From Pyrodictium abyssi (lineage in GTDB: Archaea; Thermoproteota; Thermoprotei_A; Sulfolobales; Pyrodictiaceae): a stretch of DNA of 32,000 nucleotides. A program made the position numbers and the translations under genes. The notes under the pieces are model-generated. The model ran no database searches. It was given only the letters and a program-made list of their open reading frames with translations, and was not told the origin of the DNA. Positions 4,256 through 30,289 of this stretch are shown piece after piece. Where the stretch lies: NCBI RefSeq assembly GCF_036323395.1, contig NZ_AP028907.1, positions 1,410,001-1,442,000 of the forward strand. Reading direction: 5' to 3'. Each line of letters opens with the position of its first letter. The first letter of the stretch is position 1.

Positions 4256-4624
4256 CTAGGCCTCAGCAGCAACCGTTTTGCCCAGGTACAGTAGCCGGCC
4301 ACGACGGCTATCAATGTAGTAGCGCAGCACAGGCTTGCCCACAGCTCTGAGGGGCCTTGGCTTAGCTGAGTCCGCTTCTACTTCTACTAGCTCGTCTACC
4401 GCGTAGGGCATCTCAGCCTCATCTAGCCCTACGCACTCGAGCCCAGCTAGGACTGGGCAGAGCCGGCGGCTCCACCAGCCGCGGGGAGCCGCCACTAGCT
4501 CGTAGCCGCGCGTGTAGGCTATGGCCCTCGCGAGCTCGCCTACTAGGCCTAGGGCACGGCTCGGGGATGCTATGTGCTTGGGACTGGGTAGTAGAAGCCC
4601 GAGCCCGCTACGCTGGAACGTCAA
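4256..4624 (-). CDS. Hypothetical protein (122 aa)
   Basis: ORF with a TTG start and a TATA-like GTTTATAC about 45 nt upstream on the minus strand (4665..4675). No recognisable motif. Confidence 0.4.
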   Translation of the reverse strand: MTFQRSGLGLLLPSPKHIASPSRALGLVGELARAIAYTRGYELVAAPRGWWSRRLCPVLAGLECVGLDEAEMPYAVDELVEVEADSAKPRPLRAVGKPVLRYYIDSRRGRLLYLGKTVAAEA

Positions 4625-4800
4625 GGCTTGCAGCCCTCATACAAGAGTAGCCCCACTCTTGGCCCAGTATAAACCTTTAGGCCCACCAGCCTCCCACTGC
4701 TACACGGGCCCGACAACTACAAAAGAACCCTGCAAAGCGCTGTGCTAGACAATGGAGGGGCAGCCGGGTCGTCTAGCGGCCAAGGATGCGGGGCTTTGGA

Positions 4801-4824
4801 TAGCGGCCCTCTACCCCCTACCCC
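4801..4824 (+). repeat. 5' arm of the 24-bp intron-terminal inverted repeat (TAGCGGCCCTCTACCCCCTACCCC)
   Basis: It pairs position by position with 5520..5497, giving 23 Watson-Crick pairs and one U.G pair at 4810:5511. Confidence 0.9.
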
Positions 4825-4830
4825 GCTTTC

Positions 4831-5428
4831 CTACCTCGTGCTGCTCCTAGCCCGTCTTGCCATCTCGCTAGCCACCTTGTAGGAGCCGCCCAGCAAGTCT
4901 AGCCTGTTGAAGATAAACACTCGATACTTGCCTCCATGAAGATAGTAGTTGCAGCTGGCCCCTATCAGGCTACAAACACTCACCACGAGACTTGCTATCT
5001 TCTTTGAGGCTGTAGTTATGGCTACGCGGAAATAACCGCCACGCCTCCGCTCAATGTTTCCATCAGAGTCTATAAGCCCTTCAACGACGCCTATTAGGGC
5101 CTCTAGAGGGACTCCCTCTACGCCTTCCTCAAGAACCCTTGAGATAAACCTAGTCAGCGAGAACACTAGGCATTTACCACACACTGATACGACTACCTCG
5201 CCACCCTGCATAAACACGTTAGCATTGAATCCGAGGGATGCAATCACGTAAACAAGCTCCTTCAAGATCTCCGGACTCGTGAGGCCCGAGAAAAAGCCTT
5301 ATCCGGTAGTCATAACGCTTTCTATCTATATAGATACTGCCGTCGCCTAGACAGAACCCTGCAAGGTAGCCCCATTTACGCCAACCAACTCTACTAGTTA
5401 GCTCCTCGTAGTCACCACGACACTGCAT
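4831..5428 (-). pseudogene. Two-motif (single-chain) LAGLIDADG homing endonuclease, antisense to the tRNA, interrupted by a +1 frameshift
   Basis: The N-terminal frame starts at ATG 5428 and reads [46 protein letters not shown] (motif 1). The C-terminal frame is open from 5298 and ends at stop 4831; it contains ...EALIGVVEGLIDSDGNIERRRGGYFRVAI... (motif 2). The frames join at a T5 run (plus-strand A5 at 5291..5295). Deleting one T gives a protein of about 198 aa, close to I-DmoI in size. Confidence 0.8.
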
Positions 5429-5456
5429 AGGTCCCGAGGAATCGTGTAGAGAACGG

Positions 5457-5471
5457 TAATAATACAAATAA
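5457..5471. promoter_or_regulatory. AT-rich TATA-like block (TAATAATACAAATAA), candidate bidirectional promoter inside the intron
   Basis: This is the only strongly AT-rich block in the intron. Its centre (about 5464) is about 36 nt upstream of the HEG ATG (5428) on the minus strand. It is also about 33 nt upstream of the 3' helix arm (5497) on the plus strand. Confidence 0.45.
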
Positions 5472-5496
5472 GCTCCCCAGAGGGAACACGAGGTAT

Positions 5497-5520
5497 GGGG
5501 TAGGGGGTAGGGGGCCGCTA
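5497..5520 (+). repeat. 3' arm of the 24-bp intron-terminal inverted repeat (GGGGTAGGGGGTAGGGGGCCGCTA)
   Basis: Reverse complement of 4801..4824 except for one G.U position. It lies immediately 5' of the BHB central helix. Confidence 0.9.
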
Positions 5521-5558
5521 GAAGAGCCCCCGTGACCGGGGTTCGAATCCCCGCCCGG

Positions 5559-6323
5559 CTACCATCTCCCTCCAACCCGGCTAGCTCTGCCCCCCTCTAG
5601 CTCCTCTATGAGCGACCCCACTCCGTCTAGCGTGTACTCGCTGGGGTAGAGGGCTTCGGGGTAGCCTAGCTCCTTTAGCTTCTTAGCCGTGGTCGGGCCT
5701 ATGGCTACTGGCTTGAAGCCCGGGCTGCCTGGGCTCGGGTAGTGCTTGGTGAAGGCCTCGGCTATGCTGGGGCTCGTGAACACCACGTAGTCGAACATGT
5801 CGGCTATCCTCGCAGCCGCTGAGGCCATCCGGTCTAGGACAACGACCCGGTATAGAGGGATCTCCACGGCCTCTATTCCGTGGCTCTCTAGGCCGCGTAC
5901 TAGGTCTGGCACAGCCTTCTCGGAGCGGGGTAGCAGGACGCGGCGCGGGCGCAGAGATGCTAGCTCTTCTGCCAGTGCTGCGCCACGGTATTCCCTCGGC
6001 ACGTAGTCCGTGCGGACTCCGTGCTGCTCAAGCACCTGGCGGGTCTTGGGCCCGACCGCTGCTACCCGGATCCTTCCCTGCGTCTGTAACACGCGTATCT
6101 TCTCGAGCAAGCTGGCTAGGAGCCTGGGGGCACGGGGACTCGTGAATACTACCCAGTCGCTCTTCTCGAGTTCTTTCTCCACTTTCTCGGCTGCCCCGGG
6201 TACTGGCTCTACATCGATCACGGGGATGTGGGCTACTACCGCTATCTCGGCGAGCCGGCCGGGCTCTGAGCCGGGCGGGCGTAGGAGGAGGACGTGGGGC
6301 CGCCTGTCTAGCTTAGGCGCCAA
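5559..6323 (-). CDS. hemD: Uroporphyrinogen-III synthase
   Basis: The C-terminal 254 aa of the 397-aa track ORF look like HemD: two repeated half-domains with VVFTSP motifs ([10 protein letters not shown] and [13 protein letters not shown]) and [16 protein letters not shown]. The upstream part of the track ORF is an out-of-frame shadow of cobA. The start is placed at in-frame TTG 6323, just before HVLLLRPPG, and is uncertain. Confidence 0.75.
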
Positions 6324-7066
6324 AGCTTGTCCCTCAGCTCCACCGTGTGGCCGAAGATTATGAGCGCTGGAGGCTGTACACCTGCCCGACGGGCTTTCTC
6401 GACGATGTCCCGTAGCCTGCCTGCCACCACCCGCTGCTCTGGGGTCGTGGCTTTCTCGACTATTGCTACTGGGAGGTCGGGGTCTACGCCCTCCTCTAGC
6501 ATCTCTCTCACTATGTTCTCTAGGTTGCCTACACCCATTACCACTACTAGTGTATCCACCGTCTTCATTATTTTGCCGTAGTGCACCATTTTCCTGTCCT
6601 TGTCGGGAGCCTCCCTGCCCGTGGCTACCGCGAAGCTCGACGCTATGCCGCGGCTGGTGACTGGTATACCCGCGTAGGCCGCGCCCGCGATTGCACTGGT
6701 CAGGCCGGGGACAACTTCGCACTCTACTCCGTGCTCGCGGAGGTAGATGCACTCCTCTTCGCCACGTCCAAAGACGTAGGGGTCGCCGCCGTGAAGGCGT
6801 ACAACCTTTTTGCCTTCACACGCCTTCTCCAGAAGCAGCTGGTTGATCTCCTCCTGGGTCATCGTGTGTGCGCCGGGCTTCTTACCAGCGTAGATAAGCT
6901 CTGCCCCGGGCTTAGCGTAGTCTAGCAGCTCTTTCGCAACTAGCCGGTCGTATACTATGACGTCGGCTTGTTGTATGAGGCGTAGCCCCTTCACCGTTAT
7001 AAGCTCGGGGTCACCAGGCCCGGCGCCGACTACGTATACGCGTCCCCCTCTACACTCTCTGACCAA
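6308..7066 (-). CDS. cobA: Uroporphyrinogen-III C-methyltransferase (SUMT)
   Basis: 252 aa with the tetrapyrrole methylase signatures VYVVGAGPGDPELITVKGLRLIQQADVIVYD and RLHGGDPYVFGRG. Confidence 0.9.
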   Translation of the reverse strand: MVRECRGGRVYVVGAGPGDPELITVKGLRLIQQADVIVYDRLVAKELLDYAKPGAELIYAGKKPGAHTMTQEEINQLLLEKACEGKKVVRLHGGDPYVFGRGEEECIYLREHGVECEVVPGLTSAIAGAAYAGIPVTSRGIASSFAVATGREAPDKDRKMVHYGKIMKTVDTLVVVMGVGNLENIVREMLEEGVDPDLPVAIVEKATTPEQRVVAGRLRDIVEKARRAGVQPPALIIFGHTVELRDKLWRLS

Positions 7067-7117
7067 AACTGGCCAGCACCCCGCTCCTAGGACTCTAGGA
7101 CCCCCGGGACAGGAGGG

Positions 7118-8026
7118 CTAGAGAGTGATACCCGCCGAGGCTGCTTTGGCCCTTAGCTCTAGGGCGGCGTCTATGCCGAGCTGTGCCGGCCTCTCCGGGT
7201 CGCCCTCCACGGTGACGTCTACCCTCTTGCTGCCGTCCGGCGACGCTACTGCAGCGTGTATGTAGAGTATGCCTTTTTCTATCCAGGCGTAGGCTCCTAG
7301 CGGGGTGTGGCAGCCGCCTCCCGCGTATGCTAGGAAGGCTCTCTCAGCCCTAGCCATTGTCATGGCTTCTTCGTCGGTCGCGTCCTCGAGCAGCGGTAGT
7401 ATGTCGCCGCGGCTGTATAGGGTGTAGACTCCTAGTATCCCCTGGCCAGGCGCTGGAGGCAGTACGTCGGGCGGTATACGCCAGTACTCTATGTCTAGGC
7501 CTAGCCGCTGGAGCCCTGCTTCAGCGAGTATTATGGCATCGTACATTCCCTGCTGTAGCTTGCGCAGCCTCGTGTCAACGTTGCCGCGCAGCGGCTTGAA
7601 CACGAGGTCGCTGCGGACCCGCTTCAGCATGGCGACACGCCGGGCGCTCGACGAGCCGACTACTGCGCCGGCTGGTAGGTCCCATATCGTTTTGGGGCTC
7701 CCGCGGGTGACAAGCACGTCGAAGGGCGAGGCTCGGGGCGGCGTCATTGCTAGTACGAGGCCGGGGCTAACCTCACTCGGCACGTCCTTGAGGCTGTGTA
7801 CTGCTATGTCTGCCCGGCCTTCTAGTACTGCTAGGTTTACCTCCTTCTCGAATAGCCCCTTACCGCCTATCATCGTGAAGGGCTTGTCCTGGTGTATATC
7901 ACCTCGTGTCTTGACTATTACTAGCTCGAACTCTACCTCGGGGTGCCGCTTCCTGATCTCGTTGAGCGCGAGCTGGGTCTGGGCCAGGCTTAGCTTGCTA
8001 CCTCGGGTCGCTACTCGTATCTTCAT
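7118..8026 (-). CDS. hemC: Porphobilinogen deaminase (hydroxymethylbilane synthase)
   Basis: 302 aa with MKIRVATRGSKLSLAQT, GGKGLFEKE, DIAVHSLKDVP and the cofactor-Cys region GGGCHTPLGAY. Its ATG overlaps the hemL stop (ATGA). Confidence 0.92.
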   Translation of the reverse strand: MKIRVATRGSKLSLAQTQLALNEIRKRHPEVEFELVIVKTRGDIHQDKPFTMIGGKGLFEKEVNLAVLEGRADIAVHSLKDVPSEVSPGLVLAMTPPRASPFDVLVTRGSPKTIWDLPAGAVVGSSSARRVAMLKRVRSDLVFKPLRGNVDTRLRKLQQGMYDAIILAEAGLQRLGLDIEYWRIPPDVLPPAPGQGILGVYTLYSRGDILPLLEDATDEEAMTMARAERAFLAYAGGGCHTPLGAYAWIEKGILYIHAAVASPDGSKRVDVTVEGDPERPAQLGIDAALELRAKAASAGITL

Positions 8027-30096: not shown

Positions 30097-30289
30097 GGAT
30101 CAATCACCTATAATGTTTTCATTGCCTTCTTGCTCGGGTATAGAGGAGAGGGCAAACCCAATATATATCTTTTTTATACAAGCAGCGATCCAATGTCTTA
30201 ACCCTTGTTTAAGATGCTGTGCTGGAGGCCGCCGACCTGGACGCAAAAATATAGGAGAACCGCGTGGACGCCGGTGCTGGGAGAGAGCC

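Follow-up and report, generated by a model that had tools for sequence, protein, structure and literature searches.

A frameshifted LAGLIDADG homing-endonuclease gene lies antisense to its tRNA-Gln host in a predicted bulge-helix-bulge intron of Pyrodictium abyssi

The tRNA-Gln(UUG) locus

The window analysed here is a stretch of 32,000 nucleotides (nt) from Pyrodictium abyssi (contig NZ_AP028907.1, positions 1,410,001 to 1,442,000 of the forward strand), and all coordinates below are counted from its first letter. It contains a tRNA-Gln(UUG) gene that is interrupted by a bulge-helix-bulge (BHB) intron, and this intron carries, on the strand opposite to the tRNA, a gene for a LAGLIDADG homing endonuclease that has suffered a frameshift. 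The features of the locus, followed by two reference sequences, are as follows.

4762..5564, plus strand: split tRNA-Gln(UUG) gene, with the intron at the canonical 37/38 site
4762..4799, plus strand: exon 1, AGCCGGGTCGTCTAGCGGCCAAGGATGCGGGGCTTTGG, tRNA nucleotides 1-37, with the anticodon TTG at 4796-4798
4794..4800, plus strand: 5' side of the BHB motif; C32-U35 (4794-4797) lie in the central helix of 4 base pairs (bp), and G36, G37 and A4800 form a 3-nt bulge
After 4799, plus strand: 5' splice site, following the second nucleotide of the bulge
4800..5526, plus strand: BHB intron, 727 nt, at canonical position 37/38, with the same junction as in intron-less alleles
4801..4824, plus strand: 5' arm of a 24-bp G+C-rich intron helix, TAGCGGCCCTCTACCCCCTACCCC, pairing with 5497-5520 with one G-U pair
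4831..5428, minus strand: LAGLIDADG homing-endonuclease gene, 198 codons, frameshifted; ATG at 5428, stop codon at 4831-4833
5053..5088, minus strand: LAGLIDADG motif 2, VVEGLIDSDGNI, residues 114-125, with Asp122 at the catalytic position
5271..5274, minus strand: most likely site of a 1-nt insertion, from alignment and deletion scan
5330..5368, minus strand: LAGLIDADG motif 1, residues 21-33, with Asp29 at the catalytic position
5457..5471, minus strand: AT-rich TATA-like box, TTATTTGTATTATTA, candidate promoter of a leaderless mRNA, ending 28 nt before the ATG
5497..5520, plus strand: 3' arm of the intron helix, GGGGTAGGGGGTAGGGGGCCGCTA
5521..5527, plus strand: 3' side of the BHB motif; GAAG (5521-5524) pairs with C32-U35, and A5525, G5526 and C5527 form a 3-nt bulge
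After 5526, plus strand: 3' splice site, following the second nucleotide of the bulge
5527..5564, plus strand: exon 2, CCCCCGTGACCGGGGTTCGAATCCCCGCCCGGCTACCA, tRNA nucleotides 38-73 plus the encoded CCA at 5562-5564
Intron-less allele at the insertion site: GGATGCGGGGCTTTGGCCCCCGTGACCGGGG, the predicted homing target
tRNA-Gln 3' half, type sequence: GAAGAGCCCCCGTGACCGGGGTTCGAATCC

When the two exons were joined in silico, ARAGORN returned a 76-nt tRNA-Gln(ttg) cloverleaf with CCA. No tRNA was reported in the window by ARAGORN at default settings or by Rfam at gathering thresholds; with introns allowed, ARAGORN recovered the correct span, placed the intron a few bases off and miscalled the isotype as Leu. 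No second copy of either exon is present within the window. An exon-1 pattern scan across genomes, comprising at least 120 loci, found the exon 1 of the window identically in at least 120 genomes, and the uninterrupted sequence CTTTGG/CCCCCG, i.e., the predicted ligation product, in 35 other genomes among the loci listed. Across the endonuclease-bearing loci (all loci are numbered here with the prefix L) the exons are identical or one base apart, while the endonucleases share only 45-55% identity. At one of these loci, L140 (exon 1 on the minus strand, 850-887), the anticodon loop has the sequence CCTTGG. A C thus replaces U33, which is universally conserved, while the rest of this tRNA-Gln is intact; this is either an assembly error of a short contig or a sign of a damaged tRNA.

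In existing annotation, fragments of the endonuclease appear as hypothetical proteins (P0001), one of which (P0007) continues through the antisense of exon 2, and the 144-residue minus-strand open reading frame (ORF) of the window equals a P. abyssi "hypothetical protein" save for its start codon.

The intron and its splice sites

By inspection, the window sequence fits the order of helix, 3-nt bulge, 4-bp helix, 3-nt bulge and helix with both splice sites in the bulges, the motif being bounded by the anticodon stem on one side and by the 24-bp helix on the other. This model, termed hBHBh', was evaluated over 19 non-identical junction sequences, in which its 24 pairs are 91.4% paired and compensatory double changes occur in 13 of 15 arm pairs. 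None of 500 shuffles attained the observed pairing values, and registers slid along the arms reached only 47-65%. The pairs of the central helix are conserved or covary; the CUG isoacceptor alters the helix and retains the C34:G pair. Because the splice-site helices are kept by compensatory changes in lineages that share only about 45% protein identity, selection for splicing is indicated, and the pre-tRNA can, on this comparative evidence, fold into a canonical substrate of the tRNA splicing endonuclease. No group I ribozyme core was detected, as no Rfam family reached threshold anywhere in the window.

The intron has a G+C content of 51.7%, against 62% in its flanks. An additional 8-bp helix (ACCUCGUG / CACGAGGU, 4833-4840 with 5486-5493) prolongs the intron stem past an internal loop; it overlaps the stop-codon region of the endonuclease gene and, on the other side, the promoter spacer, and L004, a close relative, shows no obvious counterpart.

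The endonuclease gene and its product

The original prediction, which was made from the letters of this stretch without database searches, had placed a LAGLIDADG gene antisense to its host tRNA in a compact intron, with two LAGLIDADG blocks about 100 residues apart as in single-chain enzymes of the I-DmoI type, and had left only a 65-residue ORF (5054..5251) on the tRNA-sense strand. All of this agrees with the present analysis. Both motifs are on the minus strand, where they are separated by 93 residues in the repaired 198-residue protein; of the 672 nt that lie between one helix arm (4801..4824) and the other (5497..5520), the gene takes up 598; and in the tRNA sense the intron offers the 65-residue ORF only. 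The interval 4831..5428 encodes, once repaired, a 198-residue LAGLIDADG protein; it is not one open frame, as the word "repaired" in the prediction had implied. The two motifs fall in different frames (ORFs 5219..5575 and 4831..5265, both on the minus strand), so that one base has to be removed to join them.

The position of the surplus base was narrowed down in two ways. In a DNA alignment with four homologues, the window carries one extra base at GAGT[C]CGGAG, and in a deletion scan the removal of any base in 5271-5274 yields the top-scoring ORF of 198 residues, at 252.3 bits. A T5 run near 5290 was considered as the insertion site and rejected by the same alignment and scan. The version of the repaired protein used for the Pfam search, the sequence search of the PDB and the family alignment differs from the final repair at six residues, which leaves the conclusions unaffected.

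A profile search against LAGLIDADG families, which had been put forward as a check, placed the repaired protein above the cutoffs of both LAGLIDADG_3 (35.2 bits, cutoff 22.5) and Hom_end (25.7 bits, cutoff 21.1), and the protein aligns end to end with intact homologues of 194-204 residues. The acidic residue that ends each motif, D29 (LGDG) and D122 (DSDG), is invariant in the family alignment. The AlphaFold2 model, with a predicted local distance difference test (pLDDT) score of 89 and a predicted template-modelling (pTM) score of 0.88, consists of two alpha-beta-beta-alpha-beta-beta-alpha halves, and its top PDB matches by Foldseek are I-DmoI (E 2.3e-9, template-modelling score 0.63-0.73) and I-Tsp061I. 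A direct sequence search of the PDB gave nothing significant, the best match being I-MsoI with an E of 0.2. By profile and predicted fold, the product is thus a single-chain LAGLIDADG enzyme of the I-DmoI type, for which cleavage activity is predicted. In the window, the gene has probably lost its function only recently.

A putative promoter and antisense expression

The AT-rich box at 5457-5471 sits within the 69 nt that separate the ATG from the 3' arm, and it lies 25 nt before this arm when read on the plus strand. It is one of only two 15-mers in the 32 kilobases (kb) of the window with at least 14 A/T; the sole other strongly AT-rich region, 30160-30178 (AATATATATCTTTTTTATA), is probably an intergenic promoter or terminator region. 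The box is conserved in L004, and a TATA-like run is found 22-28 nt upstream of the ATG in most other clades. In archaea the TATA box is centred near -26, and leaderless mRNAs are the usual form in Crenarchaeota; with a TATA centre near -26, the spacing between box and ATG predicts a leaderless mRNA. Among intact copies, the ratio of nonsynonymous to synonymous substitution rates (dN/dS) is 0.14-0.17 in three unsaturated pairs, i.e., the intact copies are under purifying selection, and such selection presupposes that the gene is translated. We infer from these comparisons that the antisense gene is expressed in intact family members from its own promoter, in line with the earlier argument that an enzyme encoded against the intron RNA would need one.

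A transcript of the endonuclease gene must cross the 5' arm and exon 1 in antisense, so that head-on transcription and complementarity to the pre-tRNA would be unavoidable. At some loci the endonuclease ORF itself runs into the helix arm. Antisense regulation of either tRNA maturation or endonuclease expression might follow from such a layout, as the original prediction had imagined; for P. abyssi itself the question is probably moot, given the frameshift in its copy.

T runs act as terminators for archaeal RNA polymerase, and avoidance of oligo-T was considered as the cause of the antisense orientation. It was rejected, as the counts are symmetric between the strands: over 12 introns, runs of four or more T number 48 in the tRNA sense vs. 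46 in the endonuclease sense, and runs of five or more number 22 vs. 23.

Distribution of the antisense family

The endonuclease gene is antisense in all 23 complete, non-identical tRNA-Gln introns (654-769 nt, the window included), and also in the partial loci L078, L144 and L164 and in the longer L175, as established by six-frame profile search and exon mapping. Every homologue for which a contig was fetched lies inside a tRNA-Gln gene, on the strand opposite to the tRNA; in all large introns, the six-frame profile search gave matches on the antisense strand only; and a metagenome scan added further loci, antisense throughout. No sense-oriented derivative was found among 27 tRNA-Gln loci. 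An inversion introduced by assembly, which had been named as a possible refutation, is excluded because the layout is conserved across these loci, i.e., the 23 complete and the four further ones. The family is small, with five representatives at E≤1e-30 among 1.84 billion proteins, and a viral contig collection contained no close relative and hence nothing pointing to a viral vector.

Two loci, L129 and L175, have tRNA-Gln(CUG) as host. L129 (1124-1965) is a member of 36% identity, antisense in a 769-nt intron, and the GGAG at its 3' end retains the pairing with C34. L175 (1-1260, with the tRNA on the minus strand of the locus) has an intron of about 1190 nt that holds, besides the antisense endonuclease gene, a 43-residue ORF in the tRNA sense (MPKRVNVTFNDDEFERLRK...), oriented divergently to it. 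The region between these two genes has a TATA-like box with inverted repeats (CTGACTAAGTAAGACAG / CTGTCTTACTTAGTAAG) on either side. Pfam gave no match for the 43-residue ORF; by eye the arrangement is reminiscent of a small repressor of the ribbon-helix-helix type and its operator.

The prediction had contrasted the antisense gene with the sense-strand genes of endonucleases in archaeal rRNA introns, and the same contrast holds for the distant relatives of the window protein itself. At 25-35% identity, 11 relatives lie inside archaeal small-subunit (SSU) rRNA genes and are read in the rRNA sense, and two more, in the same orientation, have an SSU rRNA flank on one side; no antisense copy was found among these relatives. 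In a rough neighbour-joining tree, the tRNA-Gln enzymes form one clade and the rRNA enzymes another. By this tree, the antisense layout has a single origin, in the common ancestor of the tRNA-Gln enzymes, whereas the 16S rRNA-intron relatives kept the sense orientation. Because all tRNA-Gln enzymes fall in one clade, the flip in orientation coincides with the move to a tRNA host as a single event, and the uniform orientation, being one evolutionary event, cannot be read as repeated selection for antisense. At one rRNA locus, L150, a match to group II intron domains D1-D4 (2588-2662) lies just downstream of a 16S rRNA gene with a sense-strand LAGLIDADG intron.

Signs of a homing cycle

Related genomes with and without the insert had been proposed as a means to define the homing site, and both are found. 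The syntenic locus has the order GCV_T, a conserved 122-residue ORF (orf4256), tRNA-Gln and HEM4; here the intron is present in the window and in L004, whereas the tRNA-Gln gene is uninterrupted in the metagenome-assembled genomes (MAGs) L088 and L069 of the Pyrodictiaceae, which are two of the 35 genomes with an uninterrupted gene among the loci listed. The intron is therefore polymorphic for presence and absence at an orthologous site, as expected of a mobile intron. Its G+C content, lower than that of the flanks, and the near-identity of the exons at loci with divergent endonucleases also speak for mobility. The reading frame is intact in 16 of the 23 complete introns, and the other seven have been broken independently by frameshifts or stops, each at a different site (the window, L004, L008, L051, L053 and L146, and L084 by an in-frame TAG). 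Between the window and L004 the endonuclease dN/dS is 0.20, suggesting that both inactivations are recent.

Introns lacking an ORF occupy the same site at L081 (169 nt), L020 and L095 (both 146 nt), L031 (175 nt), L052 (97 nt) and L036 (37 nt). In L081 the arms enclose an AT-rich interior and share about 93% identity with their counterparts in the Pyrodictiaceae endonuclease introns, and L036 is a minimal ATAGCGGCTA...TAGCCGCTAGAAGAG hairpin. Endonuclease remnants were not detected by blastn in the ORF-less introns of 97-175 nt, in which only the L081 arms match; these introns could be deletion derivatives or precursors. Still shorter introns of 12-61 nt, ending in GAAGAG or GAAGAA, are present at the same site in 56 genomes among the at least 120 loci listed, and they would destroy the target site of the endonuclease.

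Proposed mechanism and alternative explanations

We read the locus, with a probability of roughly 0.8, as a mobile or recently mobile archaeal BHB intron at position 37/38 of tRNA-Gln(UUG) that carries a LAGLIDADG cassette on the opposite strand. In this model, excision and ligation would restore a normal tRNA-Gln, and the cassette between the arms, consisting of the TATA-like box and the 198-codon gene, would be self-contained. In intact members the enzyme would be translated from its own leaderless mRNA and would cut the highly conserved intron-less tRNA-Gln gene at the DNA of the anticodon arm, whereupon repair would copy the intron in. Expression of the enzyme would probably stay low, owing to transcription head-on to the tRNA gene and to the complementarity of its mRNA with abundant pre-tRNA or intron RNA. 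The P. abyssi element would represent the decay stage of this cycle, at which the intron must still be spliced.

Several points weigh against this model. The window copy is frameshifted, and the insertion is carried by one assembly only and could be a sequencing error. The promoter and the leaderless mRNA are putative, and splicing and homing are predictions. In several members of low G+C content, the intron read in the tRNA sense contains T5-T6 runs, which could stop RNA polymerase before exon 2 and would be awkward for simple cis-splicing there. The synonymous divergence (dS) between the window and L004 is 0.85 in the endonuclease vs. 0.31-0.53 in the flanking genes, and the higher value could reflect separate acquisitions or merely weaker codon bias. 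Finally, all antisense copies belong to one clade, and the orientation may be a frozen accident with no functional design.

The last point can be developed into an explanation in its own right, namely that a free-standing cassette with its own promoter landed backwards once in a short tRNA-Gln intron and that its orientation, though inherited ever since, is meaningless. This would compete with the idea of antisense regulation and would leave the identification of the intron and the endonuclease as it is. Besides the single clade, the near-equal counts of T runs (48 vs. 46) show no strand asymmetry favouring either orientation, and short introns with the same GAAGAG 3' end are widespread, L036 even sharing the ATAGCGGC...GCCGCTA stem, so that a recipient intron existed. 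However, the layout persisted through deep divergence (down to 35% identity), reached a second isoacceptor and kept purifying selection, and none of the 27 loci is sense-oriented. The layout is at least fully compatible with mobility. We give the accident somewhat less than an even chance.

A different possibility is that the gene is functionally split, with a 5' half (exon 1 and its adjoining arm) and a 3' half (the other arm and exon 2) transcribed separately and joined in trans through the 24-bp helix; the AT-rich box would then be bidirectional and would also drive the 3' half, while the endonuclease cassette merely fills the gap. The box is indeed as well placed for the plus-strand 3' arm (25 nt) as for the minus-strand ATG (28 nt), although the direction of an archaeal promoter depends on the B recognition element (BRE), which could not be assigned for this box. 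The G+C-rich helix far exceeds what cis-splicing needs, but large rRNA introns with long helices are cis-spliced as well. The 24-bp helix also resembles the pairing of trailer and leader in split halves (PMC3218864). A T5 run directly 3' of the 5' arm occurs in the tRNA sense in L001, L053 and the ORF-less L031, and in at least ten genomes exon 1 has a G+C-rich tail of similar kind, while exon 2 is absent from the adjoining 2.4-6.5 kb. In the window, however, the exons share a strand at a distance of 727 nt, and the intron has no run of four or more T in the tRNA sense, so that read-through and cis-splicing are unobstructed and plain cis-splicing is the simpler explanation. A split gene is improbable here.

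It is very improbable that the locus is a defunct tRNA gene whose transcript never undergoes splicing, i.e., a pseudogene, with tRNA-Gln(UUG) supplied from elsewhere and the insert a decaying selfish gene. Such a state would accord with the frameshifted endonuclease and with the failure of default tRNA finders to report the gene, and the inspected part of the genome amounts to 32 kb. But conservation of the exons is perfect, down to the encoded CCA, neither of them has a second copy in the window, and the splice-site helices have been maintained by compensatory substitutions among loci whose proteins are about 45% identical.

Candidate split tRNA-Gln genes in related genomes

At ten loci (L032, L034, L047, L060, L063, L094, L100, L106, L107 and L123) a G+C-rich trailer, about 15 nt long (e.g., ACCTCGGCCGCCGCCCC), comes after exon 1, and no exon 2 is present on either strand in an 8-kb block, in which 2.4-6.5 kb of downstream sequence was covered. 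The trailers (CGGCCGCCGCCCC) closely resemble the arms of the endonuclease introns (CGGCTACCGCCCC). The hosts of these candidate halves are MAGs of Sulfolobales, Desulfurococcales and Acidilobaceae, and the neighbours are housekeeping genes such as those for A-ATPase subunit I (L107) and FEN-1 (L063). At L107, in addition, the gene for the catalytic subunit of the A-type ATPase (4539-7925), which adjoins the candidate tRNA half, holds a LAGLIDADG intein, a known type of element unrelated to the tRNA-Gln intron.

One may speculate, though we consider it rather unlikely, that the backwards cassette carries a promoter into the tRNA gene, which then tolerates rearrangement, and that the family is a mobile element that generates split tRNA genes. 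If so, the candidate 5' halves in at least ten related genomes would be products of endonuclease-bearing introns.

Comparison with known systems

BHB introns with LAGLIDADG enzymes are known from archaeal rRNA genes, e.g., those of I-DmoI (23S rRNA of Desulfurococcus mobilis), I-PorI, I-ApeI and I-Tsp061I. The enzyme described here has the same fold and size, with I-DmoI and I-Tsp061I as its best structural matches, and the introns share splicing of a BHB motif by protein, the phylum, presence/absence polymorphism, decay and ORF-less derivatives. Unlike those introns, the present one is hosted by a tRNA gene at position 37/38, and its gene is on the opposite strand with a putative promoter of its own and is not translatable from the excised intron; all characterised archaeal mobile introns carry the ORF on the sense strand, and the tRNA-Gln introns depart from them in this respect. 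The enzyme and the splicing motif are thus those of the classical mobile archaeal rRNA introns, and the differences lie in the tRNA host and the strand.

To our knowledge, archaeal tRNA introns have been described as short and non-coding, and mobility driven by an endonuclease has been documented only for rRNA introns. No published description of a homing-endonuclease gene in an archaeal tRNA intron was found in the full-text literature, in which coverage of subscription journals is incomplete, nor in the paper on split tRNA genes (PMC3218864), and broad reviews of tRNA introns and tRNA gene diversity mention neither homing nor an ORF there. An antisense endonuclease in an archaeal tRNA intron is thus apparently an undescribed kind of mobile intron.

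Parallels exist outside the archaea. I-Ssp6803I in a cyanobacterial tRNA-fMet gene is a bacterial example of an endonuclease in a tRNA intron, and group I introns with homing-endonuclease genes have been reported in bacterial tRNA genes (PMC3984707). They are likewise mobile introns in the anticodon loop with their own endonuclease, but they are self-splicing ribozymes with a sense-strand ORF of another enzyme family. In myxomycetes and fungi, antisense genes for His-Cys-box endonucleases occur in group I introns of the nuclear rDNA (PMC9548176, PMC3679873). They too lie inside the host intron on the opposite strand and need separate transcription; they differ in their eukaryotic hosts, the self-splicing group I ribozyme and the enzyme family. 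For the P. abyssi intron, by contrast, Rfam indicates no such ribozyme, and splicing would be by the tRNA endonuclease.

A further point of comparison is the tRNA genes that are split, some of them recently, in Desulfurococcales and Nanoarchaeum; a mobile element hitting one precise tRNA position has been proposed as the cause of the splits (PMC3218864). Position 37/38, the G+C-rich complementary sequences that unite the halves and the archaeal order are the same, whereas the P. abyssi exons are on one strand, 727 nt apart, with an identifiable endonuclease cassette between them.

Implications

A tRNA gene can, as it appears from this family, host a full homing element, which would explain in concrete terms how introns come and go at position 37/38, and an own promoter on the opposite strand would be an expression strategy undescribed for archaeal introns. 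In standard annotation, genomes with such introns would seem to lack tRNA-Gln(UUG). The existence of sense-oriented 16S relatives makes this a tractable system for the expression of intron-borne genes and for the question of whether head-on transcription and RNA complementarity restrain a selfish nuclease. As one archaeal order holds intron-less, short-intron, endonuclease-intron, ORF-less-intron and apparently split forms of tRNA-Gln, the family also bears on the debate over the origin of split tRNA genes.

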